A DNA stretch of 61,040 nucleotides, counting the filler, from Streblomastix strix (lineage: Eukaryota): the NCBI GenBank assembly GCA_008636045.1. It is 3 parts of 3 records of this genome, joined end to end, with 100 filler letters (N's around TTAATTAATTAA, not from the genome) between each part and the next. Parts side by side here need not be neighbours in the genome. Positions count along the whole stretch, not along the records: positions 40,766 to 61,040 come from SNRW01000444.1; 2 more parts are not named here. One strand, 5' to 3'. The position numbers were made by a program, and so were the translations under genes. The notes under the pieces were generated by a model. That model was given only the letters and a program-made list of their open reading frames with translations. It searched no databases and was not told the origin of the DNA. Below, piece after piece: positions 21,972-61,040 of the stretch (its first letter is position 1; the number at the start of each line of letters is the position of its first letter).

Positions 21972-24900
21972 ATGGATCTGCACGCTGTCGTTTTTTAGTA
22001 TGCATAAAATAATTGGACAGGAATCATATAAAAGTAAATTTGATTAATTTTTTTTATAAAGTATAACTATATATAAGAATATATTATACAAATATTCAAA
22101 ATTATTTTAGTTGAAGAACCAGAAATTGTATTTTTCAAAGTCTTAATATAATCTCAGTTTTATTATATATATATGCTCTTCTCTTTAAATGGATCAATAT
22201 TTTAAAATGATAGTTATTAAATAGAATATTTTCATTTCCAAAAAATTAATTTATATATTTTTATTCTAAGTATTTAATTTTGTATCTAATATATTAATAC
22301 AGAAAATCCCTGTAAGCAACACAAACTCATGATGTTAGAACTTACTCTTCAGTCTGTTGGATCTGAATATGCTCGTTTCTTAGGAATAATCAGTAAGNNN
22401 NNNNNNNNNNNNNNNNNNNNNNNNNNNNNNNNNNNNNNNNNNNNNNNNNNNNNNNNNNNNNNNNNNNNNNNNNNNNNNNNNNNNNNNNNNNNNNNNNTAT
22501 TTAATTTTGTATCTAATATATTAATACAGAAAATCCCTGTAAGCAACACAAACTCATGATGTTAGAACTTACTCTTCAGTCTGTTGGATCTGAATATGCT
22601 CGTTTCTTAGGAATAATCAGTAAGAACATATAAAATACTTCAACTTTAGCGAGTCTACTTGAAAAATATTTATAAGGTGCCTTTTCCTACTCTTACTTAG
22701 AACATATGTGTAGAATTACACACCAACCTACAAGTGAGCTCGCAAATTCAGTTTTACCATCACTTTTTTCAGAAGCAGAGGACAAAGTGTTGCTTGCCAT
22801 GCACGAATTAGAGAATCAATTTACTTCTTTTGATTAAAAGCATGAATTATAATACAATAATGGGGATCAAAATTCTTAAGCATCTCGTGAACGTGGAAAT
22901 GAAGACTCTGTTTTTGACAACAAATAAAAGAAAACGCGCCTGTTAAGAAGCTCAGATAAAATCAATTAAAACTTAAAAATTTAAAAATAATGGAATGAAC
23001 AGAATGCAAAATCAGACTCAATATAGAATACCAACTTTTCTGCCTGTTAATTCTGTTCTGAAAATCTTTACGATGAACAAGCTAGTAAATCTTTTGCTGA
23101 ATTTACGAACTGCACAAACGATATTGCTATCCGAATTATATGTCTTGGAAGGATGATTTTTTATAGGAAGATAGCAGTTCGTCTTTTTACGATGCGTTTA
23201 GCACCTTACTAATTGGATTAGAGTAGGGCAATTTTAGATACACTTTAGCTAAGTTGGCTTAATTGTATGCATATTCAGGGAAGACATTAGAAAGACTTTC
23301 CAACCCAGATTTTAAATTATATGCAAACTATATATATTCCTCCTGCGGTAGCAAAGGTTCGTCGTCTTGCTCGAGGATCAACTAGATTAGTAAGACCACC
23401 ACCGATGGATCTTGATCCAGATGAAGAAATGAGAGCAACACCTTCATATAAACTATTGGATGTTGATCAATTACTCAAATTGGAGTTTAATCCTGCTGGA
23501 CTATTCTATTCGACCCCGAAAATATAACATTTTTCCTTTGGGAATGTAGAAGAATAAGCGTTTCTTGACCAAGCAAGTTTTCGAATTAATCCTATGAGTT
23601 CAGTTTTGAACTATGTATGTGTTGCTGATTAAAATCCAGATATAGGACCATTCAAACCTATTCCTTGGTCACAATTAGATCGCGCAGTATTTCATTATGA
23701 AGATTATCTTGAGCCAATTGAAGTAACAATATTTTTGATGGAAAAAACCTAAAAGAAACTCCAATCATATTTAAAAGCCATTGTACAATTTATGAATGAA
23801 GATATTAATGCAAACTTAAAATCTATTTGTTCCAATAACACATTATTTCAGTTGGATGATTCAGAAATATTTATATTAAATTTGATTTATGGAGTTGATC
23901 GTTTCAAATTCAATCATATAATAGAAAACAATAAATAGGAATAAAATAAATAATAATAAATAGAAGTTTAGGATTAACAATAAGAAATTGTTATAAATAA
24001 CGAAGAAAATGATGACTATAATCAATCATTAATTGATAAAGATAAATAGAATAATACTGAATAAAATAAAGATGAAATTCTTTCAGATACAAAATAAATG
24101 GAAAAAGAGGAAGAATAAAAAGAAATTAATAAGAAACCAACAGCAAAAAGAAAATGGCGTGAAACTATGATGTTAATTGAGAATACAGAAAAGATAATGA
24201 GAGATGAACAAGAAGCTGATGAGAGAAGGAAATAAAATAAATTGGATAATGAAGCTGCCATATCATAACGTAAGAATGAGGAAGAACAAAGAAAGAAGAT
24301 AGAATAAGAAACAGAAGAATTTTTATAACCATTGAGAGATACTGAAAATTCTCTTATGGATTTATTCTGCCCATCAATGATGTTGAGGGGAGAGCAGAAG
24401 ATTATTACTACAATTTTAGTTATAAATCGCATTGCACAAACTATTAAGCGTCTTAAAACAAAATTTGAGGAAACATAATAAGAATTTGGACATTAGTTTG
24501 AAACTGCAAATCTGAAACATGAAAGATCTATTCGTGGAGAAGTGTAAGCACTTATTGATCGAGTTGAAGAACACCAATGGCAACTCGAGAATATAATTCC
24601 ATATGCAATCAATGAGAAAAAAACACGTACTCATTCAGAGATATGGGGGAATTCGTAGCTTAACACAGGATATGAAGAGAAGTAATACTTCAAATAGCAG
24701 GTAATAGTTGATTTAAATCCATATGATTCTGAAAGTGATAGTGATACAAAGTATCCTCTACAAATAAGCACTCGTGAAGAAAGAAGAAAAAATAGAGAGG
24801 AAAGATAGATGTAGATGATGTCGAATATCTAAAAAGTGGAAAAAATATCTAGAAAATAAAAAAGAGAAAAAACAGAAACTGAAAATATAAATAGTTAAGA

Positions 24901-40765: not shown

Positions 40766-41106
40766 ATATGCTGGCATGGAAAATGGCAACTGATGACTCA
40801 TTTATGCGTGGCTATAACTCTTCAAAAATTGGTGCCAGAACTAATATATAAGTGATTTTTAACGGAAATTTGACTAAAGGAATTGTAGATACTATGCAAC
40901 TAAATCCATCATAGAATTAGAATGATTTTAAGCAATTTATTGGTATGCGTAGCTATCCGGATCCTCATCAGGTAGCACTGACACCTATCATGCACTATTT
41001 ATGTGTTGCATTTATTCGCATAACTTTTGATGATAACCCAGACCCATAAGTATTAAGCATGAACGTTATTGGAGAAATAGGCGGTTCATCTATTAGGAGC
41101 GGGTGA
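40766..41106 (+). CDS. Putative major capsid protein (double jelly-roll), C-terminal fragment
   Basis: MLAWKMATDDSFMRGYNSSKIGARTNIQVIFNG...TPIMHYLCVAFIRITFDD...VLSMNVIGE; beta-strand pattern typical of PLV MCP C-termini; viral context. Confidence 0.65.
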
Positions 41107-41216
41107 GCAAGGACACCGTAAGGGGTCCGCAATGATTAATGGGTAAAAATAATTGCAATAATTAGCTTATCATTATTTTTGTTTATTAATCATGGCGGTC
41201 TGCCTTGCAGCCTGAT

Positions 41217-41508
41217 TCATCCATATATTGAATTCCTAACCTCCTCGCTAATTTCTTCGCTATCCATTTTTATTTATGCTATTACTAATATACAACTAAG
41301 CAAATTATTACAAGCTATAACCATTAATGATATACTAGTGATTATTTCCTAAATCATTTATATAAAAATAAAATAAAATTTTTCACCGGCAAATTTTCGA
41401 TTCGCAAGCATATTTGATTGCTACTTCCCAAATTGCCTTAAAGATTGCATGCCAATTTATATTTAATTATTAAAGGGAATAAATGATGGTTTCATTAAAT
41501 CCATCCAT
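41217..41508 (-). CDS. Two small viral ORFs (41383-41508; 41217-41357, the latter hydrophobic/TM-like)
   Basis: Each runs ATG to TGA and is preceded by ATAAATG. Confidence 0.5.
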
Positions 41509-41526
41509 TTATTTATTTTTAAAATG

Positions 41527-42573
41527 TCAAGCTGATTAATTATAAATAGCATATGAATCACATACTTATACACAAAAATCATTTGGCAAATTAATTTAGC
41601 ACTATGTATTTATTATAACATTACCGTTAGGATTAATATAACAATCCATAGCGATTGCACCGGTCCAATCTATTGGATAGCCATATACTTTTTACGCAAA
41701 CAAAACAGCATTAAGGGGTATATTATGCGTTGTGCCAGAAAATTTTGGTTTTATGTCGTTATTGATGATTGAAAAAAATGTATAACCACTTTAACATGTC
41801 GTGTTTGGATTTGAATGAGTTATTTACAGAGATATATATACGCGATCTTTTTATGATTTTACAGTGCCCCAAATTTATTATTCATACATACCATAAGCAA
41901 TAGACTAATATATTGCATATTCGATAGGGACAGGAGGAAGAGGTGATATAATTTAATTGTTAAATTTTAATGTCATACATTCGAAATCGATAATTATACC
42001 CTTATAATCATATGCTTAATCTTCTTATTTTTATATTCTAAATTATGATGAAGTTGATCCCATTTTCCATACCCCATCAGTATCTGTGGGGTCGGTGTTG
42101 CAACCAGTGAGTACGAAACTATCCCAATTTGCTTTATTTTTCATTATCCGTATGCCTTAATTCCGTATGTCATTATTTGGTTCTATAGTCAATTAACCCA
42201 TCGCGTGAGGAAAATATTTAGGCAAAAAATTCCCTGTGTCTGTAGTATCACCATTAGCGAGTAAAATTTCGTTGCTTGTACCTTTATTTTTAATGAATTT
42301 TTAAGCAATAACAGGCTATAAAAATGTTTTCACTCCATCTATTATTTAACTAGTTCGTAAATTTACGTAATCAATTGAATTTCTGAAAAATTGACTTAAA
42401 TAGTTAAAGTATTTAATAATTTCGTTATCCACTATTTATAAAAGAGTATTTTTTTATCTAGTTTAATTTTGCTGTTCTTCCTATATTTTTTATAATCGTT
42501 TTTACTCTTCTTTTTGATTTATCAAATCATCCTCATCTAACAATGTTAAATCACTAATTGGTTAATCATTCAT
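41527..42573 (-). CDS. Fibre protein 1, phage tail-fibre-like (frameshifted)
   Basis: YVNLRTSQIIDGVKTF...KFIKNKGTSNEILLANG; GIRIMKNKANWDSFVLTG; beta-rich head IKPKFSG...DCYINPNGNVII. Confidence 0.7.
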
Positions 42574-42598
42574 TTTATATATCCAAAAATAAATCATA

Positions 42599-43015
42599 TC
42601 ATTCATTCACATAGTAATCAATGCAATTAACTAAACATTTGACACCACACTAGCCATATTTATTATATTTTGTTTAAAATTGCATTTATTCTACAGCTTC
42701 TTTTAATTCTCGGTATTTTACCCCGAAATCCCTGTTATCACATAAGACCTTCATTTGTTCGGTATATTCTTTAATTATATCGTCGATGTGCTCATTGTTT
42801 CTTTTTTCAATCATTATATAAACTGTTTATGGATATTTATCAGGTTATTTATCATATCGTTTTAACAACTTATAATATGGTTTATTATTTTTACTTAAAG
42901 ATCGTTGGTAAAAATCATCACCACATTGATAAATAGGTTCTACGTATATTTCTTTTGGAATATTTTAAGGATGAACCAACAATTTGCCTTTTAAAACAAT
43001 TTCAAGCTAATCCAT
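42599..43015 (-). CDS. Viral hypothetical protein
   Basis: Intact ATG-TGA frame with TAR=Gln; TAAAAATG start. Confidence 0.7.
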
Positions 43016-43065
43016 TTTTATAGATAATAAAAATAATAAAAAAATAAATAAGGATAAAATAATTT

Positions 43066-43746
43066 TCAAAAATCATTTTCTGTTATTTCCATCTCTGGTG
43101 CTTCGCTTAATCGAATGAAGTCGCAATTTACTCGATAAAGTTTTTCAATAGAATTATATAGCACATTATCCAACACTTTTACAGACACATTTTTTATTAA
43201 AATATCTTAAACTCTAATAAGGTCCTTTTTCTTAAATTTTTTAGGTATGCAAGTATGGGGTTATATAATTGCTTCTTCCAAAACTATTTCAACATCATTT
43301 TCATCATTCTAAGTGATAAGAGCCCAGAATTTTATAAAATTATCAGATGAAAAAACAAAATCATCTCCTCGTTATCTGTGGGTAATGGTGCGCCAGCACG
43401 TATCAATTACAAACTTTTATACTATGAGATTAGGATGTGATAGGTATATACTTTTTGGTTATTCTTCTGCTAGCTATTAAATTGCCTCTTCTGGTAATAC
43501 TTATGCGGTTGTTCTATCAACCTCTTTATACTTATTTATGTTATACTTTTTATGTGGTATGTTTTTATTCTAATTTTATTGTGCTGTTTCTTAGTCTGTT
43601 GGCATTGTTTTTATACGATTAATAGCCTCATCGATTAGTTATATTCTAATTTTATCCTCATCTGTAAGCTCTTTTTTCTTGATATCCGACATTTATTTTT
43701 TACTCTTCGACATTCTTACTTGATTTGTTTCAATGCCCTTTATCAT
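43066..43746 (-). CDS. Viral hypothetical protein
   Basis: Intact ATG-TGA frame with TAR=Gln; TAAAATG start. Confidence 0.7.
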
Positions 43747-43770
43747 TTTATTAATTTTTAAAATATTAAA

Positions 43771-44435
43771 ATGGAATTATCGCATGTCTTAAGAATTTGA
43801 TAGAAAATGGAACAAATATTGAATACTTTGATAAGGGTTATGTTGTATAGATTAACAAATAAATAAAGGTATATGAAGACGGCAAAAAGCAACTGCGAAA
43901 ATTGACATAAGCATAATAAAATAAGCTATTGCTATAAGCTCGTGGAGGGGGATAAATAAATAAAAAACCATCAAAATAAATAGTTTAAAAATAAGCTGAG
44001 GATGAAGAAGAAGATTTTATAAACTATGAATAATAGGAGGAAAGGCACCGAGATATACAATAAGATATGAATGAAAGCGAAGATGAAACAGTTAGCCAAA
44101 GCGAAAGACCCGAAAGGCCAATAAAACATTTCCGTGAGGCTAAACAACCACATAAAAAAGTTATAAAAGCATCAAAATAGCCATAAATCAACTATACTAA
44201 TCCATAACTAGATTTGGAAGAATTAATACGTTTAAGAACTGAAAATAATTTTATAAAGTAATAGCATTAAGACGCTATAAAACAAATAGAGAAATACAAG
44301 TAAAAAGTAAAACGTTATAAGCAACCAAAATAAGATATTGAAAAATAAGAAGCCTCGGAAATTTAACAGGAATAACCGCAACAGATTATTTAACACGAAC
44401 AACCACAATTTAGTGAATATGATTTATATAATTGA
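43771..44435 (+). pseudogene. Viral charged coiled-coil protein, frameshifted
   Basis: Coding-like segments in different frames, ending ...SEYDLYN*. Confidence 0.5.
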
Positions 44436-44462
44436 TAATTTTATTTTTTACTAATTATAAAA

Positions 44463-44750
44463 ATGAATATTAATATTATCGATATAGATGAATAGGGTAA
44501 AATATGTGCTATTGGTAATATTCCATGGAATAATCTACATAAATTTTAGTTATCAAATAATTAACTACTTTTAACAATGAACCAAATAAATGATTACTAA
44601 GAAAAAATAAAAACAATTAACGGCGATGAACTTTTTAATTATATTAGTGAAATGCGGGTGCTTAGTGAAAAGTAAAATAAATTACGTAATGAATATGTAA
44701 AACAAGAAAAATAACGCTATCGTTAATAGCTAAAAGAAATGGATGATTGA
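44463..44750 (+). CDS. Viral hypothetical protein (95 aa)
   Basis: Intact frame MNINIIDIDEQGKICAIGNIPW... Confidence 0.65.
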
Positions 44751-45061
44751 CTTTTTGGCGGATTGTCGGCTCGACTGGCTTTTTTTATGACAATTTTTTA
44801 CTCGGAACAGACCAAGACATTTTTGATAAAAAACCTGGAACACCTGGAACGGTCCGTGGCTATGGCATTTTTTGTTAAATCTCCATGCTAAAATTATTAT
44901 ATAAATTATGTGTATCCATTATTTGCTATTATATATTATTATAAATTCATGTGGGGGTTTATTGGAGATATTTTTTTAAAAAGCTTTTTTTAACCGTTAT
45001 TTATTTATTTTAATTATTTTATATAAGGGTGTTTATATAGGTTATTTATTTTGCACATTAA

Positions 45062-45310
45062 AGTAGTATATGATGGTTATTTATGCAATAACTTCAAAAG
45101 GTATTAGAATTTATAAAAAACCACGCAAGTTCTTTTTTTTGATTGATGGACTAACAAATACAATAATATTTTTGAACAAAGGCGTTAGCCAGCTGTGAGA
45201 AAATTTTATAAATTTGAAGGCCAAAAATCTTAAAAAATGAAGGAGTGGAGATTTTTTATAAAACTGATGCTTTTTTGAAGTTGGGGCATAAATCACCATT
45301 ATATACTACT
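45062..45310. repeat. Inverted-repeat unit A with Polinton-type AGTAGT...ACTACT ends, flanked by an ATTAA direct repeat
   Basis: Arms match at 33 of the first 38 nt; ATTAA at 45057-45061 and 45311-45315. Confidence 0.85.
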
Positions 45311-45316
45311 ATTAAG

Positions 45317-45524
45317 AGTTGTATATAGGAGTGAAGTTCGCCCCAACCCAAAATACATTTTATTTATCTTAATAGCCCCCAATGAAATAAGCTCGTTTCA
45401 TAAATCACGAATTCGGTTTGCTTTCGCATCCTCATTCGTATTTATTCACTCCCTATTTTATTGCGAGATTATAAAAAATCAAATGTATTTTAAGTTGGTG
45501 CAAACTTCACTCCTATATACTACT
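45317..45524. repeat. Inverted-repeat unit B with AGTTGT/AGTAGT ends, homologous to unit A arms
   Basis: Arms match at 35 of the first 40 nt (AGTWGTATATAGGAGTGAAGTT...). Confidence 0.85.
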
Positions 45525-45981
45525 ACAACATTACTGGCTCCTTATATATTGAAATTAAAAAAATAAAAAAATAAAAAAAATTTTAGTGTTATTTATAAAT
45601 GTATAACATTTGAGTTTCAAATTAAATCAAATCATAAATAAATGTAAATTAAATAAAATAAAATGAGATTAAAGTTTCAACCAAACGAAAATCAAAAAAA
45701 TAAAATGCAAAAAATTTATATTCTTGTTGGGACGAACTAGTTAAAAAATTGTTTTGAATTTATTTTAATTTGATGAATAATAATATTATTAAATGTAATT
45801 TGTATTTTGGCCCAAAAATAACATACGTACAAATTTTAAAAACCAAAAGCAACAAAAAGCCTCGCAAGCCAATTGTGACTTGCAGCACCTAACACCTTCT
45901 TTTTTGGCTGCCGGGCGGACTTTGCCACTGTTTTTTTAAATTTTTGCAAGAACAGTCGTCCCCTTGCTCGTAAAAAAAATT

Positions 45982-46087
45982 AAAACAAACAGTTAATTTT
46001 TACGGACGAAAGGACGTGAGCGGGGGAAGACGAACCTAGACACTCGACTGGGACAGTGGGGGAGCCAAACCCACTGAGCCGCTACGG
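45982..46087 (-). ncRNA. Candidate Pol III-type structured small RNA
   Basis: GC-rich island with A-box-like GGCTCAGTGG, B-box-like GGTTCGTCTTCC, internal stems and downstream T-runs. Confidence 0.3.
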
Positions 46088-46139
46088 ACAATATTAATAT
46101 TTATTCATTTAATATTAAAATAATTTATGGAAATATAAA

Positions 46140-47332
46140 ATGAGTAATAAAAATAAACCAATTAACGAGGTAATCGATAATTTAAGTTTTAAACCAGATA
46201 AAATAAAACTGAAGGATTTTATTAGAAATATCAATAATTATTTTAATTAATAATTTACATTAAATAATTTAGAATAGATATTTTAAAATAAAAACAATTT
46301 CGCAGTGGTATAAAATTTATTTAGATAATTATTTAACATATCGCGCGGAAAGAATTAAATAAAACGTTAAACCAAAAATAATAAAATAACCGCAGGCGGA
46401 GGTCGGAAGACCGACTTAAATAGAGTAACCAAAAATATAAAATCCATTTCGTAGCAACGCAAAAGATAACCCTGAAATATTCCAAGATATTAAATTAAAA
46501 CCACTAAAGAAATACCAACGGCCTAATTATTCGCCTCTGTTGGGCAGCTGGGAGATTGATATAATATTTATAATGCACCCCACCATATATAAAGTAATGT
46601 AGCACTATTTTTTTGCCATAAATATAAAAACAAAATTTTTAATTGTTTATCCAATCAAGGATAAATCCACAAATGAATTATTAAAATGTTTAAAATAATT
46701 AATAAATAATTAATCGATTTAAAACATCCGTTCTGATGGTGAAGCCGCACTTGGCAGCAAATAAATAAAGGAACATTTGAAAGATTAAAATATTACATAT
46801 TATTACCTCATCATAATTTATCAATAAAAATCGAGTTGTGGATTCCGTTGTTCGGACTATCAGAAATGCATTCGAAAATGATGACCCACTGATGGCTAAT
46901 AATAAATAAATGCAGTAAGTCGTTGATGAATACAATAACACCAAGCACTCAGCATTTAAGAATAAATTTACGCCTGCATAAGTAAATGAATCAGAAGATT
47001 TAAAAGGCATATATATCCGTTAGAAAATAAACCAAGCTGCCAACATAAAAGAGTTATAAAATATGGATAATATATTATACTTAGTGAAAGGAAATATAAT
47101 AATGATTCATTTAGACCTATCAAAAACGGCTCATAATTTCGAAAAGAAACGAAGGCAATTTAACGAAATAGCAATATTTATAAAATATAGTTATGGAAAC
47201 GTCATTTGTGAATTATTGAAGCCCTACAAAGACATTAAAACGGTTGAGGTTCCAATTTATTATACTAGGAAAATTGCCCCGTCAATTGATAAGCTATAAT
47301 AGAAATACAAACGAACTTTTAAGTTAGTTTGA
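46140..47332 (+). pseudogene. Polinton-type retroviral-like (rve) integrase with at least 2 frameshifts
   Basis: SWEIDIIF...YFFAINIKTKFL...NIRSDGEAAL...NKNRVVDSVVRTIRN...YNNTKHSAFKNKFTPAQV; frame changes near 46480 and 46803. Confidence 0.85.
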
Positions 47333-47362
47333 TTTGTTTTTAATATTTTTATTTATTAATAA

Positions 47363-47786
47363 ATGGAAAATAAAGAAATTAAAGAATAAAAAAAAGCCGC
47401 GCAAAAAGTATATTATAAAAGTGAAGCCATAAGTGGAGCCATAAGTGGAGCCATGAATGGAGCCATAAGTGGAGCCAGAAATAGAGCCAGTCCCATAGGG
47501 ACCGTCTAAAGACTAAGTGGAGCCTAAAATTGAAGCTCCAAAATAAGGAAGGCCTCGAAAATATCAAACAGAAGAAGAGGCTAAAGAAAAGGCAAGAGTT
47601 TAAAGGAAAAAATTTAAATAGAGGCTGAGAGAAAAATAGAAAGTATTTAAATCAGACATTTCTGAGTTATAATTAACGGCCTAAAAGTTATTAAATAAGG
47701 CTGTTTTATCAAAGGAGGGTTTAATTAAAATACTTGAAATAATCGAAGGGGGCCCAAAGGAACAGACTGACGATATTTCTAATTGA
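47363..47786 (+). pseudogene. AT-hook DNA-binding protein with (VEPQ)n repeat, disrupted
   Basis: GRPRKYQTEEEAKEKARVQRKKFK; 12-bp repeats at 47421-47490; slip in the A-run near 47390; TGA at 47454. Confidence 0.65.
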
Positions 47787-47787
47787 T

Positions 47788-48630
47788 TTCATTTCTTCTT
47801 ATTTTTCTTACCATATTTTTTTAATTTATCTTATGCAGTTACTGTTTACATTAATTTACTTGTTTTAATTTAATTCTTTCTTTATTTTGGTCGGTTATAT
47901 CTGAATTCCTTATCTAAATTTTATTTTTGAACTCTTAACGAGGGTATCCCGCCATCGTTAATATAATATGCGGCTTTCATTTCTGGATAATTATTATTAT
48001 TATATAATGCATTAACTTAACCCTTTCCCCAGTCAGTTGCTCCTGTTTGATATCCTAAATTAGTCACTGCGTCGGCATTAACCAATTTTAAAATTTGACC
48101 TTAACGTTATTTATTTTGTTCTGTTTGCATTAAGTTTTATACTAAAGTTCCTTAAGGCTAGGCATCACTAAATTAATCTACTGGGATGGAGAAAGCGTCA
48201 GATTATAGGCCTCATTAATAAATATTATCTTTTTCTTTTATTTTTTCCTTTTCTCTTAGGCTTTCTTTTATTTATAAAGGCTAAGGTAGGCACATATTTG
48301 CTAAGTTATTTAAAGGTTCATTTATACGTGCATTAATATTATCAGCATAAGTTACGCGGTTGTCAGGGGCTCCTTCTTATATAACTCTATTAGACTCACG
48401 AACTGATTATAATAACATTTAAGCCATGGGGTTCATTTATTGATCTGTTTATGTAGATACGGGCTGCGGAGTATTATTATTTATAATCCCTCAACTTCTA
48501 CCCCATTTGGTGTTCTAATTAATCCGCTACGATTTTCATGGTATCTGATATTTTGCGAACCTTACGACCTTCCTCTTTTAGACATGTTAGATATTTTAAT
48601 AGATTTTAAAAATTTTTTAATCATTTCCAT
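47788..48630 (-). pseudogene. Viral hypothetical protein, frameshifted
   Basis: Coding-like segments in several frames (MSKRGRSQGSQNIRY...; GATDWGKG...MAGYPR). Confidence 0.5.
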
Positions 48631-48673
48631 AAATGGAATGAATAAACTTTTTTTTATTTTTATCTTTAATTAA

Positions 48674-48988
48674 ATGATTAAAATATCATGTGAGGAATTA
48701 ATGGTATATAGTTCATTCTTAAGTTCTCTGGTTTCTTTGGCTATGAAATCAGACCCATAAATTGAACTGCGTTTTTTATTGAGATAATTTAATAAGCGCC
48801 TGAAGATGGAAGAAATAAAATATATCATATCGATAGCCTAAGAAAATAGCTAAGATATAATTTTAAAATTAATGGAATTATTTAATGAAAGAAGTAAAAG
48901 AGAAATGGGCTTCGTAACCGAAGAGTTGAGCGAAGCGAAAGACGACCGTCATAAATTAATGAAATACATTAATAGAAAACAATAATGA
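48674..48988 (+). CDS. Viral hypothetical protein (104 aa)
   Basis: Intact ATG-TGA frame; TAAATG start. Confidence 0.7.
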
Positions 48989-49012
48989 TTTTATTAATTT
49001 ATTTTTATATAA

Positions 49013-50497
49013 ATGTCGAACATTGGCTTATAAATTACTAGCTCTGATTCAGATGAGGACTTCGTATCATGGAAGACCACCATACCCTCGGGCTACAATT
49101 CCTTTTAAGTGAATAGCATAACTAATATACCTATAAATTTAACCTATTATTTGAACAGTGAATATATAGAAATATAGCATAATATTATTTCGACTCCCAA
49201 TAGAAAAATATACTATTAAAAAGATAACGGAAATAATATTTTTACATTATAAGCATTAACAGAGTTGCCACCTATCAGAGTGAATTTAAATACGGCAATA
49301 AATAACTAATATGTTGATAACTAAGATAATTGAGGATATAAATTTGTTCCGTAATTGCTTGCTCTTTAAGTTCCAAGTTTTACTAATTTCATTGATTGAT
49401 AAGAAAAAGATTTTAAAGTATAATCAACAATTAATAGGGGCGCTATCTGCATCAATAATTCCCAGAATGAGCATACATAAAATTTATAAAATAACCAATT
49501 TTTATTAAATACAAATTACGGGTAGGATATAGTAAGTTCAGCGATAAATTATATAAATTTAAGAATTGACGCGTTCCTTTATCATTATTGGATAATGGAT
49601 TATAGTACTGGCATCGTTTATAGAGCTATTGGTTTAATTCGTTTATATTGCCCAACTTCAAATAATTTTATAACTTCAGTTGAAACCCGAGCACCAAATG
49701 CATTATCAGTTCGTTATTTATTCGGCAAGCGCATAAATATTAGTTCAGCAGGGGTAATTACAACGTCAGGCGATTAACTAATTGATGTTTAATAATAGAC
49801 CATGCAGCAAATAATCAATAATATAAATACTTTTCCCGTGAGAGTAATATGCTCTTTGCCAGCACTCACTACCTATGAATGGACGGGTATTTATGCAGCG
49901 GTTGGAAGAGCTGGCTTTTAAGGTTAATTCATTGTTGAAGTTATTGGTGAGTATGCCGCAGTTGAGCATATTAAGCCCACACAAGGTGGGGACTCCGCGT
50001 GGTATACTAAAAAAGTTATTTTATCTCCAAATATATAGTATTAATTAGCAGGAAGTTTAGATTTATACGATGGCTTAAATGAGAATGGATTAAATTAATT
50101 ATCAAATTTTTCATCAGCTATAAAATAGATTGATTTAGAGACATGGTTTTATAAGACTAAATTTACATCTAATAGTTTGATTCCTGATTTACCGATATTT
50201 TGCCCATTCATTGGTAATTTTATCGAATATCCGCAGATATTTATTATATGCGTAAATAATTAATTAAAGGGTATAATGATGGAGACAGTCGGAGGCAATG
50301 GGTTTAGTAATGTATGCTTCAAATAGAATTTGATTGATGCGTCTGTTTTATGGGGTTAGAACATGATGTATTAAGAATGTTTAATCGGTTAAAATAAAGC
50401 AATTATATCTACTTTATATGATAACTTTGGTCGTAAGGTACCGACATAATTCGGCGAAATGTATAATAATTTACTTTTAGAAATTTAAAATTAGTGA
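49013..50497 (+). pseudogene. Putative minor capsid (penton-like) protein with large insertion, disrupted
   Basis: Beta-rich; N-terminal ITSSDS...IPSGYNSFQVNSI; C-terminal YPQIFIIC...LYDNFGRKVP...LLLEI; TGAs at 49331 and 49397; frameshift near 49920. Confidence 0.6.
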
Positions 50498-50914
50498 AAT
50501 AAATTATTTTTATCTATCATAAATGGACAAATTAAATAAAAAAAATCGATTACTATTAAACAAAAGCAATAGAATACGCATTTTGTATCAAAAGGATAAA
50601 CTAATATAAAGATTAAATAATTCATCCCCAAAAATATTCAAAATAAACTAAAGGCTGTTGGTTTAATAATTATACGGTAGAGATTCCCATTAATGAAATT
50701 ATTGATGAGGCATGAAATTAAATATAATTATATAAAAACGACTAGACAAAAATAAAGAAATTATTGATATTTTATATGATGCTTATCCCGAATTGAAAAA
50801 TGAATTTGATATAATTAACTAAGAATTTGAAATAAATAATTGATTTAATTTATATTTATTTTATCCTAACTAAATTTATTTATATATTTTTTATTTTTTT
50901 AATTTATAATAAAT

Positions 50915-53900
50915 ATGCCATACTTAAAGAAAAGTGAAATCATCAAATTATTAGGTTCAAATGAAAAAAGCAAATTAAAAAGAAATGAACTAAAAAAATA
51001 ACTTGATTAAAAACTAAACGAATTAAATTTCCCCAAACGTGGAAGGAATAATTTTAATGCACTAAATAAATTCATTGATGCCCAAAATAAACGAATTGAA
51101 CAGGAGCAAGAAATTCAAAGGTATTTTTTAAATGAGACTAAATAATTTACTATGCCCCCCGATTTTTAAGATACAAAAAATGCTTTCAAATTACCTCAGC
51201 ATTATATTGACATGATATAAAATGAAGAGATTAACGATAAAATTAATAAATATGGTAGTGAATAAGTCAATGAAATACAAAATGATTACTCTGATACTTT
51301 GCTTTATTTTCAACCTGCAGATATGGATAAATTTATTGAAACAACTGATAGAGCACGACATGGGTATCAGTTTAAGAAAGACATACAGGGAGAGATAAGC
51401 AGCACATACTATAATAATTTGATTTATTCATTAGACGAGATAAGTAAATTTATTGACTCGGTATATTAAAAACAGAATCATAAACCATTTAAAACTACAT
51501 TTGATTTTGGCGTTGTTTATGAGGAGCAAAACACAGACAAGCATGGCCATCTTTCAACGTCATACGATTATATTTTACCCTGAGAAGCCAGAACTTAGAA
51601 GCAAATCCCCAAATCGATAGTCACTGAGTAAGACATCGAAGAATATAAAGAGTATGTTAAATCAGAAATAATAGAGATGCAGAACTTTAATTTGGATAAC
51701 ACAAAATAGCGGTTCATAGCCATTTATTCGATGATGGTTAAAACGTTTGCCCTTTCTTAGTTTCGCGTCGGCAGCAGCAGGATGAACTGATAGACTTTCA
51801 TCTTCTGGTTCATAGGAATTGTTTGAGAACAACAAAATACAAATATAATTTATGCTGGTTCTATGCTTATAATTTATTTAAATATCATGATGCTCCAGAG
51901 AAAAAAACCAGTGAACACTCACGCGAGCACATGGAAAAGGAGCACAAGATGAAATATTATGAGGTGCATGAAAAATAATTTTAATCATGGATACAAGAAT
52001 ATAAAGGATTCAATATTGATTCAGAGATTGACATGTTCATTTAAGACGAGAAAATTAATATAAATATTTATGATTATGATACAGAGCAAAAAATATATTA
52101 TTAATCAAAAGCATATAAATTTAACGAAGAAGCCACGGATGAATCCAGTGATGAATCAATAAACGAACCCGTCAGCGCTCCCGAATTTAACGTATTAATA
52201 TGTTCCACAGAAAATAATGAAACACATGCCTTTTATATCTAGAATAAAGAAACATTAACAGGATTAAGATTTTGCCCTTTCTGTAAATCAAAAGCATTCA
52301 ACCCTAAAGAGCCTCATTTCGTAGATCAAAATGAGAAGCACATTAAGAAATGCGAAATTAACGAAGGAAAAATAATAAAGGAGGTTAAAATGGAGGCTGT
52401 TTAAAGGCCTTTTATCCCTCGTGTAAATCAGAACAAAACATACTAATTCCTTTTGGCGACTGGTAGAGAAAATGAATTTAAACCCACGAACTACTATATT
52501 ACTTATGATTTTGAAACTGTTGAGAAAGTAATCAATAAAGATTTTGGTAAATCAAGCAAATAGATTTCATAATAGGTTCTTCTTTCTGTAGCCTCGACAA
52601 TTAAAAGTAAATAAGATATAAAAACAGTTTATTTTGACTTACGAATTGGAGACGATTTTATAAATTAATAACTCTAATAAATATTCAAAAAAGCGGAATA
52701 AATATAGGAAGATAATAAATATATAGACGAATTCATCAATGATTTAGCCAACAATGAAGTTCAAATCGTTGGATTCAATAGCACAAAGTTCGATTTTGCA
52801 TTAATATTTAAAAATCTATAATCGTTAGCCTGGGAAATTAAAAGCAATATTGGCAGTTCATCATAAGCCAAATCCATCATTGTTTAACATAAGCATTCAT
52901 AAATCAAGTTGAAATTCTGTGATATTATGAGCTATGTTCAAGCGATGACTTTAAAGGATTTTACAAAAAATTTTGGAGAGGAAGCCATGAAATAAATGCA
53001 GGATATTACGAAAGAATGTTTAAAGCTACACGAAAAGGGTGTATTTCCATATGAATATATTAACACTGATAATTTAATAATGTTTTTGATAATATTGAGC
53101 CATTCCCTCAAGAGGCTTTCAATTCAACACTAAAGAACTCATCAATGAATGACGACGAATATAAAAATTATTTAGAGGACGCAAAAGAATTTAAAAATCG
53201 TTGGGAATATTTGCAGTATTATAATGAACAGGATACAAAAATAATGATAGCCCAAATAGACAATTTAATTTGAATGAATTTCAAATATAAAATTGATATA
53301 TTTAGTTTTATTTCCATGGCTGCATGTGCAAACGCCACCAAATAGGCATTTTGAAATAAGGATTTTGTGCTTGGCTTCGCTGTAAATGCAAATTATCCCC
53401 TCACTATTGATAACTCCTATAAGTTCGTTTTATATCCTTCAAATTGGAAATATTAAGTAGATGGTTACAGATTCCAAGATTTGAATAAACGTAGAGACCA
53501 AACAAGTGACATATCAGTTAATGACTATGAATATTTTAGGCATTTATTCGATTCCTCTGTTTGTGCCATTTTCGGTGATAAATTTACAATGATGAACCGC
53601 CCAACACTCGATCGAATAAATAATGATTTAACGCATACAAAAGATAATGTATAACCCTGCTGCTTATATTGCAATAAATACTGTTCAAATAAAGATAAAA
53701 ATATTAGTCGATTATTTATTTAACTTCGCAGGTTTTGCATGATGCATTGTCTCCCTACAAATATAACCAATATCGACGATTATAAACTGATTCGTAATGG
53801 AATAACTGGCGGCTTATCTAATGTAATGCATAGGGAAAATATAGCGGGTAAAGATTTTATAAAAAAATTCAAGTATGATCCAGTGAATAAGAAAGTTCAT

Positions 53901-55315
53901 GTTCAAACATCAAGTAATATAATTTCTCATATCATCTGCGTTGATTTCAATTCCTTATATCCAAGCATTATGTCAACAAAGCCGCATAAATTTATTCCTT
54001 ACACCAATGACAAAATGTATATGGTAGGAAGCATATTGGGAAAAACGGATGATAAACAAAAGATAATGAATATAATTAATAATAAAAATAGATTCACTCC
54101 ACAGGATCAATTATTTATAGCTGAGTTAAAGGGACACATCGACGAAAAATATATTAATGATTTTATTAATTTCCTACTTATTTTATGAAACTATACATTT
54201 ACCATTAATGAGGATACCATTGGATGCTACATGTATAATCATATGAAAAATATCAATATTAAAACAGACAAAAAATAAAGAAAATTAACAAATCTTTTAT
54301 CAACGATGGGTGAGTTCATGTCCTTAAACTCATACTATTTATGATTCTTGATTGATGACTGCCATTTTATTATTGATGATGTAAAACAATTAATTTTACT
54401 TAATAAACATGATGAATTTAATCCGTTCGTCAAGGAATTTATAGGCAAGAGAATATAAACTAAAATAGAAGGAAATAAAGGATTTGAATAATTCTGTAAA
54501 AATATCATGAATTCATCATATAGATCCGATGGAATGAACGCCGAGAAATTTACAGAAATAAAAGTCATGGATAAGAAGGGAGCATTAAAGGCCCATTTAT
54601 CAAATACTTTTATGGATGAACAATAATTATCTGATAATGCATACGCGGTATAATTAAACCCTGAGACCTGCACATGTAAGACATCTATTTAAGAAGCCTA
54701 TTTTGTGTTTGATAATGCCAAATATTGGTATCTTAATTTTATATATAATTTTATGCATAAAGCTCTTGACATGGAAAAAATGTACCTCGTAGAAGGCGAT
54801 ACTGATTCGACTTATTGGGCTGTATCAGGAAACGCTGACGCAGGCCATTTATAATAATTTAACTACGTAATTAAAGATAAATAATTTATGATGATAATGC
54901 AAAATATTTCTTTCCAACAATTGAAGGGGAGCCGAAGGCAGACCACATCGCGGCCATGTTAGACGAGAAAAAAATACTTGGTTTAGCTCCTGAAAATTAA
55001 GGAACAGAAATAGTAACATTAGCCCCTAAAAATTATTATATAAAAGTTGGTGAAAAGGAAAAGATAAAATTATAGGGCGTCAATTAGAAGACAACAAAAA
55101 TAAACAAATAAAACATTGTGGATAATATCAGAGATAGAACGATAACAAAAGCTACTAATATGAGACTAGGGCAGAAGAATTATATTACGTCAAAAATAGC
55201 TACAGAAAAAAATGGAATTACTGGCATACATACAAAAATGGTAGTATTAAAAGATTAGAGCTGTTGCCCATACATCCACGGGTTGAAAGCTAATGATTAC
55301 GTTATTGATTGTTGA
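50915..55315 (+). pseudogene. Protein-primed family B DNA polymerase with N-terminal extension, Zn finger and HNH/EndoVII-like insert
   Basis: ExoI YITYDFET, ExoII GFNSTKFD, KGVFPYEY, ExoIII YNEQDT, motif A VDFNSLYPSIM, motif B KNIMNSSY, motif C EGDTDS, LAPKNY; several TGAs and frameshifts. Confidence 0.93.
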
Positions 55316-55337
55316 ATAAAAATAAATTTATTATTTT

Positions 55338-56179
55338 TCATTTATTCTCCATTTTGCCCTTTATAAAATTAATGAGTTCATCCATTAATTCAGGCTTAAG
55401 AATGTATCTACATTAATTGAATTTTATTTTATCTCCAAACATTTACGATAACTATTTTTTTATCTCATAATTTTTTGATTTACTTGTAGTTATTTTATCA
55501 TAGAATAATAGACTATCATTTAATTCATTAATTTATTACTAGTGCAATATCTATTTCTTCTTCAGATATTAAGAACAATATTATCATCTTCTTCATCATC
55601 ATCTACTTGAACAGCAAATACATAATCGGTTTAATAGCCTTCTGGAACTGCTCGATGTTTTAATTGTTTTATTTCATAATTTTATTCGTTTATCTTTTAT
55701 TATTATTCTTCAATAACCAAATCAATCATATCCTCAGCGAAGACTTATATACTTGCTACATCATAATAAGACGATTATATACGTTCATTAATTGAATCCA
55801 TTATTTGATTGACTATATATAAATATTTTATTTATGTCTTCATACATATTATATTGATTAAATCTTTATGTATATATGTTCCCCTTACATCGTTAATATA
55901 TTCATTTACTAATTGATACTCAAGAAGGGGCTGGGCTGTTTTGGGCCCAGCTGATTGTTCGAGCAAAAATTGCTTGTAATCCCTATACGTTGCGGTTGAT
56001 GTAATTTTCTTTAATTGTTTATTTATATGCTCGCGTTCATTAATTTATGTCACTAATTTAGTTGTATTAGTGAATCTATCTTTATCGTGTATGATTATCT
56101 CGAACATCATAAAGGAGCCAATGGTGAAAGTCTCATTAATTGAAGTAATTGATTTAGTGGTTGCTGTTGTTGATTACAT
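55338..56179 (-). pseudogene. KilA-N domain protein
   Basis: INETFTIG...EIIIHDKDRFTNTTKL...VRGTYIHKDLINIICM, coiled coil, RAVP; TGA at 55562. Confidence 0.8.
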
Positions 56180-56226
56180 TTTATATAAAATAAAATTTCA
56201 AAAAATAAAAAAAACGTTATTAATTT

Positions 56227-57265
56227 TCAATTTCTTAATATTTCAAATTTTCCGAGCCACTTGTTTAAAATCGTAAACTCATATTTATTTAATGTGCCAT
56301 ATAATAATAACATCTATTCAAAATCCAACCCTTAAATTGAATTTTCCTCGTAAATTTATTTTAAATCACTCTCTCCTATTTTAACTCCTATTACTATAAC
56401 ATGAGAAAGAATGGGCGCAGTCTTAAATAAATAACTGGGTCGTTAAGCTATAAAGAATATGGTATTTTTACTATGGTGTGAATCGCAAACGAGATGCGTT
56501 ATTGTTTTCGATAATGAAGATGAAAATCGTTGTATATCAGCATTGGATCCTATATCATCAAACAGCATCATAGTATTCAATAGCTGAGCATCTTTTAATT
56601 TAGAAATTTTTAATACTTTTCGTCTGCTGTTTATTTATCATCAATTACTTTCAATTTCTTTTGATAGGTAACATTTTAAATAATGGGGGGAACTTTGAAC
56701 CGCAGGATTTCAAAAGATTGTGAGTATTTATTTATGGTCCCTATTATTGTAGATTAAAATAATTCATTAATTCTTTCTACATATTTATCTGGTTTCTCGG
56801 CCACTGCGTAGCAGTCTGCCGACTCCCTTTTTATCGCGTTATTATCTATTATTTTCTCTTTCATTCGCTTAATAAAATCGTTATTGTAATCAAAATTTTA
56901 TTCCCGCAGCTTATAATAAGTACAAACTTATTTAGTGCTATATTTTACCTCGTCAAACACTGGCAAAAAAACATAGCCTCGCCATAGGTTATATTCACTA
57001 TTTATATTCCTTTGCTATTTAAATTTAAGGCCATTGTTTCATTCGCTCCAAAATTAGAGAAATTAATTATATAGGGGTCAATTATTTTTTTATATATAAC
57101 AATCAGCTTGGACATAAGCGTTGTTTTACCTGAGCCAACAGCTCCAACTATATAATGGTTGCCATTGACGAGGAACAACAAATTTTTCGTTAGTAATAGC
57201 GTTTTATATTCGTTCAATAAATCTTAGTTCGCAAATTATATATTTTATAAATCCGCTAATGTCAT
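56227..57265 (-). CDS. A32-like (FtsK-HerA) genome-packaging ATPase
   Basis: Walker A IVGAVGSGKTT; Walker B MMLFDD; downstream DSHHSKNTIFFIAQ, matching the R-H...hhhhQ motif with the Arg apparently replaced. Confidence 0.85.
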
Positions 57266-57677
57266 TTTTATTTGGATAAACTGAATAATTTGAATTTAAT
57301 AATGGCCACCATGAACTATATGATTTATGGCTTCAATTTTATTATATCTATTTTATCTATATTTATACCTGATAAATTAACCGAAACAGTTAATTTAATC
57401 AAATAATTATGGGACTATTTAGACCTAATATTAGTTCCACTTTACATTTCAGTTTATATAATATAATTTTTTTATAGAAGGAAAATGGATAAGAAATAAT
57501 AATTAATTCATTGGAATAAATTAACAGTATAATAAATTGAGTCATTTCTGAATGAAGCAATAGCAAATAAAGATTTTGAATTAGCCCAGCACTGGCGATA
57601 TATTTTATATTTGAAGATGATAAATGATAAATAATAAGTTTGAAATTAATTATTTTTATTTTTTTATCTGTTATAAA

Positions 57678-58040
57678 ATGACTCTCGCTTCGCTCAACCC
57701 TTCGGTTAATCAATTTGAAAAACTGGAATTCTATTTAAGCCAAGACTAAGTAAAGATAGATGGGCAACTAATCAAATAAATCAACGGCATGCAATTTAAT
57801 GAGCTCCGTTTATGGAACCTGTAATTCTATCAATTAACCAAAGCCAAAAACAGCGATTATACATATTAAAGGAAGTTAAAATAATATGGGAAATATAACG
57901 AAAAATATATATTCGTTAATGATACAAATAATATTGAATAGAAAATAGGCATAAAACAAATCATTTAATCGAATCATAAAAGGAAACCTAAAAGAGAATC
58001 CTTAAATGAAAACACCGAAGAATAATAATGTGGGATATGA
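57678..58040 (+). CDS. Viral hypothetical protein (120 aa)
   Basis: Intact frame; TATAAAATG start. Confidence 0.6.
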
Positions 58041-58309
58041 AAAATATTTATTATTATTATTAATTAAATGAATCATCCTGATGGATTGCAATAAATATAT
58101 TAATTGGCAACAAACATCGGCCTATAATATAACGCGACGGATTACGTAATATTTAAAATATTCGAGGCATTAATTGAACCAAATAATTTATCTGATGATG
58201 AAAAATAAACGCTGCGCTAATTCAAAGACCATTGTACATTTGCGGAACCGCTAACAGATAAAACAATTGAACTCATTAAATATATCCAATTTCTCAAATT
58301 TGCTTATGA

Positions 58310-58741
58310 AATTAAATTTATCTGGTAATAATTGACCAAGCTACTATTTTATGCATCATTTACAAAGTCAGTGTATATTTATTTCTCTGTTTCATTAGCT
58401 TCGGAAATTATATATTTTTTGATTTACATGGGCTACACATTTTAGTCCAATTGCTTTTTAATTTAATTGTATTTATTTTTAAAATATTTCTCCTGTTCAT
58501 TAAATAGTTTATTTTTATATTCTTCTTCATCGACATATTATTTTATACTTTACAATTTATTATATAAATTTAGAAATTATTTATTTATTCTCTGCAATTC
58601 TTTCAAAAATGGATGCATTGGCTGTTTATTTTCTTTGATAAGCAAATTATTTAGTGCATCGATGGCTACCCTTATTGTATCCTCATTTTCAAAGTGGCAT
58701 TTGACAAGTTCATTAAATAATTATTTTATAGGTTTCTCCAT
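58310..58741 (-). CDS. Viral coiled-coil hypothetical protein (3' end uncertain)
   Basis: TATATAAATG start; MEKPIKQLFNELVKCHF...; long open frame. Confidence 0.5.
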
Positions 58742-58788
58742 TTATATAAAAATAAAATTAGAAAAGATATGCGGAGTATTTCGCAATA

Positions 58789-58876
58789 CAGCCGCAAGTG
58801 GTGGCAAAACTTCGTTTTGCATAATAAACCCCAGCCGCAAGAGGTGGTAAAACTTCGTTTTGCATAATAAAACCCC
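58789..58876. repeat. 43-44 bp tandem duplication containing a GCAAAAC-TTC-GTTTTGC hairpin
   Basis: CAGCCGCAAGWGGTGGYAAAACTTCGTTTTGCATAATAAA(A)CCC, two copies, directly 3' of fibre 2. Confidence 0.9.
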
Positions 58877-58888
58877 ATTTATGGAATC

Positions 58889-60859
58889 TCACCGAGGAAC
58901 TGACCCTAATGTAATTTGTTTAACACGCCAATATACTTTTGGCCCATCGCTATAAAATCCTCCTTCTGTACCGGTACTATTTACACCCCATAAAATCGGA
59001 TTACCAGCTGAATAATTAACTGACCCATTAGTTGCTCCATTCGTTGCTCCTGATCCAGCGATAACTGACCCATTGAAACTTAATGAGTTTCCATCAACTG
59101 AAATAGATAATCCTCCATTTGCAACGTTTTAATCAGCTGTACGCTCTATATTTAACGTTCCATTACCTTTTTTGAATATTGACCATTAGCCATCAATCGA
59201 ACCAGCTGTATTGATAGAAGAAGTTCCAATATATATAGCACTAATATTATTGTTATTATTAGCAATTCGCAAACCTTCGCTATAATTTCCTGTTGATGAA
59301 TTAATTTACGTGTTGCCTTTAATTATACCGCCTTGATTTTTGAATTGAGTTTATATTGCAGTACCAGTAAATAATGAACCAGTGGGTAATGTATCAGTAA
59401 TTATATTAAATTGATTTATATTATCTTATAGTATAAAATTATCACGAACATTAGATCCAGAGAGTTATGATAAATTAATGTTAAAAAGTATATAAGTACT
59501 GTCTGAAAATACTTTCATATAGAATCTTAAAATAAGAGATGTTTCATGGGTATCAGCACAAATCATAAAATCAGTTTATACTTATCCAAATTGTGTAACT
59601 TCAAATTTTCTATTATAGTCGTTCTGAATTCTAAGATTACACATAATCTGATAAAATAAATCAACAACATAAGTAGTATTAATATCCATAGTATAACCAT
59701 ATGAACCGTTAGATGTATAATTAGGTATAGTTAATACAGCAAAACACAACCAATATATACCATCAGCAGGATCAATTTAATAAGCTCTTGGTGCAACACT
59801 TGTATTAAAATCTGTTAATGATTCATTTATTCCATCAGCCAGTAGTATTTATTGATTTGTTCCACCTGTTTTAATAAATTTAGTCGCTGTAATGTTTCCG
59901 TCATATGTTAATTATTAAAGATGAACATGGTCATTTCTACAGTAATAATCACTAGTATCATTAACAGCAGCGGCAGCATTTACCAGTGGCACATTTGCCA
60001 CAGTTTGATCAACATTAAGGGGGTGTTAATGTTGGGAACAGGCATATATATTTGATGTGCAAGCTGTTCCTGTTCCTGAATCTTTTAGATATATATCATA
60101 ACTTAGATTTACATGATGGGTATGGTCAGATCTAGCATAAGTGGCAGCAGTGCCAGCCTATCCCTCAGCAGTATTAGCGGAAGGCAAGACAGACGAAATT
60201 TGAAAGCGGTGCTAATGGTCCCCACGGCTATATTCATTTGAAATGCCAGCAAAACCTGCGCCACTATCAACCAATGGCACCGCATCACTCGCGGGCGTTA
60301 CCTAGTCTGCGACAATATCGCCGCTATTATACCATTCATCAGAATACATCCATACTGTCCCAGACTCCGCATTAAATGCAAAATCTCCATCAGCGGAATT
60401 TAGCAAATTTTAAATATGCGTGTTCAATAAATAATATCCCCTAAAATGCTGCTATCGTGCAAGCTCTTGCTGTATGGTTATTATTTCATTTTTTACCCCA
60501 ACAATATCAGAGTCAATAGATCCGACAGTTGATTGTAATTAATTTACTTCATTAATTAATTGGTTAATTTATGCGACGAAATCAAAATTTAAGACCTTTA
60601 AATTCTTTTCCGTCAATAAGCCATCAGCGGCAATGTTTAACGCAAAATCTGAAGCTTAGCTATCAATGATTTAATTATTGGCAACATAAACTAAAGCGTT
60701 ATCATTATTTATAAATAATTAATAATCTTCATTTTGCAATTATCCACCCGCAGAGTTGCCGCCACTTTTCGAGTATTGGATATAATAAGCTATATCATTA
60801 GTGATTAATTACCTGACGGTTCGAATTTATTACTATGAAAGCGAATTATTTCTTTGCAT
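58889..60859 (-). CDS. Fibre protein 2, phage tail-fibre-like with HxH repeats (at least one frameshift)
   Basis: YSRGDHQH, YARSDHTH, YACSQHQH, YCRNDHVH; ITATKFIKTGGTNQQILLADG; YSEGLRIA...GQWSIF; ...GFYSDGPKVYWR. Confidence 0.8.
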
Positions 60860-60929
60860 TTGTAATTTATATAACACAAAAATAAAAATAATAAACGAAA
60901 TACATAAACGAAATACACAAATGGATCTG

Positions 60930-61040
60930 TCAGCTCTTTTTATTGACTAGTCGATCCACTGCTACTTGCCAGTCCTGCACCAGCACCAAGTGCGCCACCA
61001 ATGCCCGGATGGATCATTCCTACGGGGCCCGCTACCGTTG
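60930..61040 (-). CDS. 3' end of a Gly/Ala-rich amphipathic viral protein (possible core/membrane-active protein)
   Basis: TVAGPVGMIHPGIGGALGAGAGLA...; a 1-nt shift continues it as AVDRLVNKKS*. Confidence 0.5.

Follow-up and report, generated by a model that had tools for sequence, protein, structure and literature searches.

A partial, decayed Polinton-like element read with TAA and TAG as glutamine on a contig of Streblomastix strix

The stretch of DNA analysed here (the window, 61,040 nucleotides, from the genome assembly of Streblomastix strix, an oxymonad flagellate of the termite gut) is made up of three contigs with N-spacers between them; they occupy 1-20283, 20384-40665 and 40766-61040. 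The third of these, one entire contig, probably represents an incomplete copy, damaged by mutation, of a DNA virus of the Maverick/Polinton type using a code in which TAA and TAG (TAR) specify glutamine. The copy is likely integrated in the S. strix genome, where hundreds of diverged copies likely exist. A first-pass annotation had proposed a Polinton-like virus with this code and a jelly-roll capsid, and these claims were borne out. A protein-primed family B polymerase (pPolB), an rve integrase, an A32-type ATPase, a KilA-N protein and a capsid C-terminus were found where it had placed them. The principal features are the following:

40766..61040, no strand assigned: partial, decayed Polinton-like element, bounded by N-spacer; CpG observed/expected ratio 1.07
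40766..41106, plus strand: C-terminus of a capsid protein, 112 amino acids (aa), gene cut by the contig start; 161 homologues and the fold of a sister protein
46140..47332, plus strand: rve-type integrase, frameshifted; PF00665 at E 3.5e-5 (below the cut-off) and a match to the standard-code relative L024
49013..50497, plus strand: candidate penton (minor capsid) gene, conserved, of ~490 aa, interrupted by 2 in-frame TGA; 12 homologues
50915..55315, plus strand: pPolB with an EndoVII/HNH insertion, likely vOTU Cys/His, 3 frameshifts and 5 TGA; tblastn, PF03175 and phrog_1035
55562..56179, minus strand: KilA-N protein; PF04383 at E 1.9e-8 (above the cut-off), 27% to the KilA of L024
56227..57265, minus strand: A32-type packaging ATPase in three frames; profile of relatives

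The pPolB gene was collinear in tblastn searches with intact relatives of 1,356-1,581 aa (22-47% identity), and its family was supported by PF03175 (E 3e-4) and a PF00136 motif. Its frame changes near 51780, 53073 and 54890, five TGA codons lie in frame, and the EndoVII/HNH insertion was recognised by phrog_1035 (E 2e-10). Cys and His are retained in alignment at the position of the vOTU protease described in pPolB by Krupovic et al. (PMC11161782), and a vOTU domain is likely, its assignment being by position. The integrase matched L024 in two frames at 33-37% (E 1e-35 and 1e-11) and is interrupted by at least one frameshift. The rve integrases usually have a catalytic Glu at the third position. 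Here an Asp is found instead (window 46790-46830), and the same residue in L024 (3021-4409) indicates a lineage trait rather than damage. When a profile of six Pox_A32-positive relatives was run against 364 six-frame pieces, the two ATPase pieces ranked first and second (E 1e-4 and 1e-3); they preserve Walker A and B, with His replacing the Arg of the relatives. The KilA-N prediction was likewise upheld by the PF04383 match. Thus, three of the genes by which Mavericks/Polintons are recognised, pPolB, rve integrase and A32-like ATPase, are present, each of them broken in this copy.

The 112-aa capsid piece matched 161 proteins among 189 candidates. The 120 of these 161 that were listed all belonged to S. 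strix, with 56-97% identity, and 18 of the 120 were full-length (624-658 aa) and collinear. Sequence searches of the PDB with the capsid and with pPolB gave nothing useful. In VIA, 49 of the top 50 rows obtained with a capsid sister model were double jelly-roll capsid or scaffold proteins, with Z of 2.9-6.0 and root-mean-square deviations of 3.6-7.5. Almost all of these matches extended over the two rolls, the best having Z 6.0, deviation 5.9 and 282 aligned. In Atlas, the sister P0006 had feature scores of 0.95-0.97 near the capsid clusters of NCLDV and virophages, the nearest clusters being those of Preaxostyla and Parabasalia. The double jelly-roll was therefore recovered on full-length sisters by VIA and Atlas, with a low-confidence model, which supports the view that the predicted capsid fold is carried by the sisters and that the element is not a capsid-less transposon. 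Moreover, the locus tags of the capsid protein P0110 and the pPolB protein P0123 are four apart, with the same contig size of 16,319 bp; they are likely on one contig, which ties the capsid and pPolB modules together. In another S. strix gene model, P0096 (1,057 aa), a capsid of this family is combined with an HNH domain (PF13392, E 3e-8); either a homing endonuclease has inserted there or the gene model is perhaps a fusion.

Retranslation with table 6 yielded 107 open reading frames (ORFs) of at least 80 aa over 38000-61040, against 3 with table 1. In ten viral gene sets (3,779 codons) there were 187 TAR and 89 CAR codons, TAR making up 187 of the 276 Gln codons (68%), and in five host genes (8,001 codons) 543 TAR and 238 CAR were counted (543/781, 70%); long open ORFs hold 28 TAR each. 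Alignment of pPolB, integrase and KilA to standard-code relatives placed Gln opposite 24 of 79 TAR, 12 of 51 CAR and 108 of 1,858 other codons (p 6e-11), and at invariant columns Gln faced TAR in 5 of 17 cases versus 4 of 415 for other codons (p 6e-6). Trp stood opposite 2 of the 17 TAR at invariant columns, which looks like damage. A test against S. strix proteins (24/57) was dropped as circular, those proteins being annotated in table 6. Internal TGA codons totalled 7 (5 in pPolB and 2 in the penton candidate) against 187 TAR, which argues that TAR use did not arise by post-integration decay of a standard-code gene. In-frame TAR, Gln enrichment opposite TAR in standard-code homologues and the host-like TAR share together bear out the code. 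The earlier statement that the ORFs are readable in it holds for the code itself but not for pPolB, the penton candidate, the integrase and the ATPase, which are interrupted even in table 6. As a matter of logic, the recoding would limit the host range to TAR=Gln hosts.

The multi-copy nature of the element was observed in contigs from raw runs X1 and X2, aligned on 51200-55300 (4.1 kb of pPolB). In X1, 2,118 contigs fell on this stretch (213 at 99% or more, 466 at 95-99, 888 at 90-95 and 551 below 90), and in X2, from another study, 766 did so. One 292-nt X1 contig (depth 6.8) runs through the TGA at 53352 and matches the window without any difference. For two further TGA codons of pPolB, all the listed X1 depth has another letter, and at one frameshift about half of the depth has an indel. 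This comparison indicates that sense codons dominate in the family and that at least one lesion is truly in the reads; some of the lesions may be artefacts. The present copy, broken in replication, integration and packaging genes, is likely dead and could be mobilised at most in trans, so that the description of a virion-forming virus is possible for the family but does not hold for this copy. The CpG observed/expected ratio was 1.07 in the viral contig versus 0.46 and 0.49 in the two host contigs, a contrast that may reflect host methylation or a recent viral arrival. Copy number, divergence and lesions, together with the findings of Bellas et al. (2023, PMC10120064), suggest that the element is endogenous, and S. 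strix is its likely host, judging by the origin of all 120 listed capsid and all 12 penton homologues.

Several points weigh against the reading of the contig as a Polinton-like virus copy with real lesions. The fold model of the capsid, of the sister P0004, is weak (predicted local distance difference test, pLDDT, of 49), with the window holding only 112 aa of the protein, and Foldseek returned no match for this model at E 0.001 or better. Penton and fibre identities are unsupported. At invariant columns Gln faced none of 7 CAR and only 5 of 17 TAR, these being small numbers. Within the 40766-61040 contig there is no host junction, matched terminal repeat pair or element-level target duplication; the contig is cut inside genes at both ends, which explains why no host flank is visible. 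Finally, run X1 is possibly the source sample and thus not independent, and Bellas et al. (PMC10120064) showed that short-read assembly of repeats of this kind can generate false stops.

The general result, recoded Polinton-like viruses in Streblomastix, was already published in 2023. Bellas et al. (PMC10120064) reported that the viral elements of S. strix use the TAA/TAG=Gln table of their host. They counted 820 capsid hits for this species, amounting to about 11% of its genome and falling within a single Metamonada cluster; the S. strix reference capsids of that study are ~550-560 aa long with ~32% to Trichomonas vaginalis over ~527 aa. The proposal that such a virus is hidden from annotation stands insofar as S. 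strix was treated separately in that study, and fails insofar as sister proteins are already in NCBI and UniRef, some of them named 'Major capsid protein'. The possible novelty lies in the capsid family of ~650 aa, likely a second, uncounted one. The alternative that it is already among the 820 hits, by way of the iterative PSI-BLAST with which Bellas et al. searched S. strix (PMC10120064), in which case all would be known, is the strongest competitor, somewhat less probable than not: the family is remotely homologous to Metamonada capsids, collinear over 196 columns, and its nearest Atlas clusters are Preaxostyla and Parabasalia. Against this, all 820 hits stand in one cluster column, whose S. 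strix references have the length and T. vaginalis likeness given above, and the identifiers did not overlap in either direction: none of six S. strix ids in the Bellas tables occurred among the 120 listed capsid homologues, and none of six ids of the ~650-aa family appeared as S. strix ids in the part of those tables considered, their S. strix rows excepted. Four standard-code capsids from the metagenome-assembled genome G001, matched by eye through motifs shared with the references, served as stand-ins for the Bellas capsids. The two Metamonada capsid subtypes among these stand-ins link to each other at an HH probability of 95%, whereas the ~650-aa family links to them at 8% and 0.1% only (best BLASTP E 0.001), far below the MMPC_40/41 thresholds (E 1e-12, 23% over 100 aa). 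No description of a second S. strix capsid family was found in the literature covered, which lay outside subscription journals.

The fuller interpretation, for which the chances appear about even, is that of a second, uncounted Polinton-like lineage of S. strix, combining a 650-aa double jelly-roll capsid without detectable close relative outside oxymonads with a parabasalid-type replication and integration module including KilA. This lineage would have left standard-code hosts, adopted TAA/TAG=Gln and multiplied to hundreds of copies, so that viral DNA would make up more of the genome than the 11% published, and it would also have spawned AGT-ended mini-elements. If the family is indeed uncounted, a divergent capsid lineage would be added to a group that was left unplaced in a 2026 framework for lack of genomes, and the viral load of the S. 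strix genome would seem to have been underestimated.

The mini-elements of this scenario correspond to two internal units with inverted repeats:

45062..45310, no strand assigned: unit 1, a small inverted repeat ending in AGTAGT; its 60-bp arms agree at 75%, and ATTAA (5 bp) lies on both flanks
45317..45524, no strand assigned: unit 2, a small inverted repeat 6 bp away from unit 1, with related arms that agree at 82% over 60 bp and flanks that do not match

When the contig was scanned at 50-bp intervals for inverted matches, these units ranked first and second; their arms of ~60 bp start with AGT(A/T)GT. AGT ends are a Polinton trait, and the units are likely relics of element ends resembling miniature inverted-repeat transposable elements. 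A pairing of the two as matched terminal repeats of one element was rejected, as they are only 60% alike across the junction; in a Polinton, the terminal inverted repeats should measure 100-1,500 bp and the duplicated target 5-8 bp. Eight viral loci with a terminus-like pattern were set aside as chance, having the pattern alone in common and no protein match. The units also bear on whether the contig is a single element. Two neighbouring elements, or an assembly or amplification chimaera, could have been joined at the repeats (end at 45310, start at 45317), which would be compatible with a Polinton-like virus copy while altering its gene order. Immediately ahead of the integrase, AGT motifs resembling termini point towards one another across a gap of 6 bp, two fibre-like genes are present, and none of the listed contigs spans even the 4.1 kb of pPolB. 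Such a joint is nevertheless unlikely, because the arms pair better within units (75% and 82%) than across them (50-63%), unit 1 has its own 5-bp flanking repeat, and no host-like CpG-poor spacer lies at 45310-45317.

Less probable still is the explanation that the lesions are mostly assembly or amplification errors hiding an intact copy, possibly active or a free virus in the sampled cells. Bellas et al. (PMC10120064) corrected such stops in another protist, the sister contigs differ from the window at two TGA sites and have an indel at one frameshift, and 18 of the 120 listed capsids are full-length at 624-658 aa. Even so, a raw-run contig reproduces one of the stops without differences, the lesions are many, of mixed kinds and spread across four genes, and only 10% of the aligned contigs are at least 99% alike. 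Two further readings, a self-synthesizing transposon without a capsid and a virus of the standard code in which TAR codons arose as damage after integration, may be dismissed as very improbable, the unproven penton and the few TAR facing Trp being outweighed by the VIA and Atlas evidence for a double jelly-roll and by the code statistics (187 TAR versus 7 TGA, a TAR share equal to that of the host and ORFs with 28 TAR each), which largely refute them.

Returning to the preferred reading of a decayed copy of an integrated, recoded virus, the biology of Polintons suggests how the intact family might operate. Replication of a linear genome would be protein-primed and carried out by the pPolB, whose vOTU domain would cleave the terminal protein away. 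Insertion of the viral DNA into the chromosomes of the host would fall to the rve integrase, and its packaging into a double jelly-roll capsid with putative penton and fibres to the A32 ATPase. The lineage is likely derived from standard-code metamonad elements, and since TAR use matches that of the host and far exceeds TGA damage, the host code would have been adopted while the element was still replicating, the decay of this copy presumably coming afterwards. Among the standard-code relatives, 20 of 26 long ORFs end in TAA or TAG (two loci overlap, so that one is possibly counted twice); a move into S. strix would therefore have needed new stops, and a move back would truncate every protein.

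The remaining features of the contig are the following:

41527..42606, minus strand: putative fibre-like protein 1, open ORF of 359 aa, unconfirmed
58889..60859, minus strand: putative fibre-like protein 2, open ORF of 656 aa with coiled coil and His-x-His repeats, unconfirmed
42599..44750, region of four orphan ORFs: 42599-43015 (minus), 43066-43746 (minus), 43683-44435 (plus) and 44463-44750 (plus)
47457..47786, plus strand: small basic protein with a GRPRK (AT-hook-like) motif, from sequence only
47789..48988, both strands: orphan ORF pieces
57300..58822, region of orphan ORFs: 57134-57643 (plus), 57624-58040 (plus) and 58073-58822 (minus)

The structural accessory genes of the first-pass annotation fared less well. 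The minor jelly-roll capsid (penton) that it had proposed lies in a single frame with stops at 49331 and 49397 and has 12 homologues, all from S. strix; it found no family or fold support, with no PDB sequence or fold match and a model of pLDDT 28, at which a fold search is uninformative. An aspartic protease was considered for this gene and discarded, the Atlas rows reaching 0.76, under the lead threshold; Atlas scores for the penton candidate stayed below 0.9. The two fibres were not confirmed by family or fold either. Fibre 1 had no Pfam or PHROG match and fibre 2 no informative one; the two candidates share a 42-aa segment (38%, E 2e-4), and in the sister gene model P0012 the fibre 1 gene adjoins the capsid gene. 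The AT-hook protein could not be substantiated, as GRPRK was found by eye and no Pfam match was obtained; five 12-nt repeats lie at the start of this ORF (47410-47489). No convincing Pfam or PHROG family was found for the four orphan ORFs at 42599..44750, and ORF 58073-58822 starts with a 43-nt tandem duplication (58789-58874). No adenain/Ulp1-type maturation protease was matched by Pfam among the 58 ORFs and pieces of this incomplete contig. At the contig end (60900-61040, minus strand), a small Gly/Ala-rich ORF piece recalls certain Gly-rich genes of L019-L021, which lie there between the ATPase and the capsid gene, with no tblastn similarity to them.

The first 40665 positions of the window comprise two CpG-depleted host contigs with table 6 genes, which also hold two very long orphan ORFs. 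An identical 127-nt stretch flanks an N gap there (22271-22397 and 22498-22624), likely a scaffolding artefact. The host genes recognised were:

945-4979: formin FH2
10193-12412: triple ubiquitin-like protein
17848-19173: S41 peptidase, weak match

Related loci were not found in the viral_contigs and metagenome_contigs collections. Polinton-like genes were observed in two bacterial metagenome-assembled genomes, G001 (L009, L010, L019-L025 and L030) and G002 (L011 and L013), those of G001 including five A32 ATPases, two pPolB, KilA and several Metamonada (MMN)-type capsids; these contigs are likely mis-binned protist virus DNA. Adenain had no match in either genome, nor did the capsid, penton and fibre-2 queries, for which there was no positive control.

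Among known systems, the closest in host and code are the MMN Maverick-Polintons and endogenous viral elements of S. strix (PMC10120064), which share the likely host, TAA/TAG=Gln, multiple copies, a double jelly-roll capsid and fragmented genes, and differ in their capsid of ~560 aa with ~32% to T. vaginalis, compared with ~650 aa and HH probabilities of at most 8% to the stand-ins here. The replication and integration module resembles that of Trichomonas and other parabasalid Mavericks and of the standard-code loci L009, L010, L019-L025 and L030, which have a pPolB with an HNH-type insertion (22-47%), an A32 ATPase, KilA-N and an integrase with Asp at the third position (33-37%); pPolB, integrase and KilA are intact in L009, L010 and L024. 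These relatives differ in carrying MMN-type capsids and in lacking a match to the penton candidate or fibre 2. KilA has been described as apparently restricted to parabasalid polintons, a trait that its presence in an oxymonad element widens. The Tlr elements of Tetrahymena use TAR=Gln as well but differ in their hosts and in how they replicate, having other replication modules. An Imitervirales genome written in code 6 (PMC13524828) is likewise a eukaryotic DNA virus with TAR=Gln, differing in replication module and host. Animal Maverick-Polintons and adintoviruses (Polintoviricetes) share the plan of pPolB, rve, ATPase and capsid, whereas in the present element no maturation protease was found and the capsid is unrecognisable by sequence. 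An endonuclease inserted in pPolB also occurs in the nematode and oomycete pPolB2 Polintons with HNH (bioRxiv 10.1101/2023.08.22.554363), and metamonad elements stay ungrouped in the 2026 framework (bioRxiv 10.64898/2026.06.19.733378). Taken side by side, the recoded element and its standard-code relatives, which mostly end their genes in TAA/TAG that this host would read through, form a natural experiment on the passage of viruses between genetic codes.

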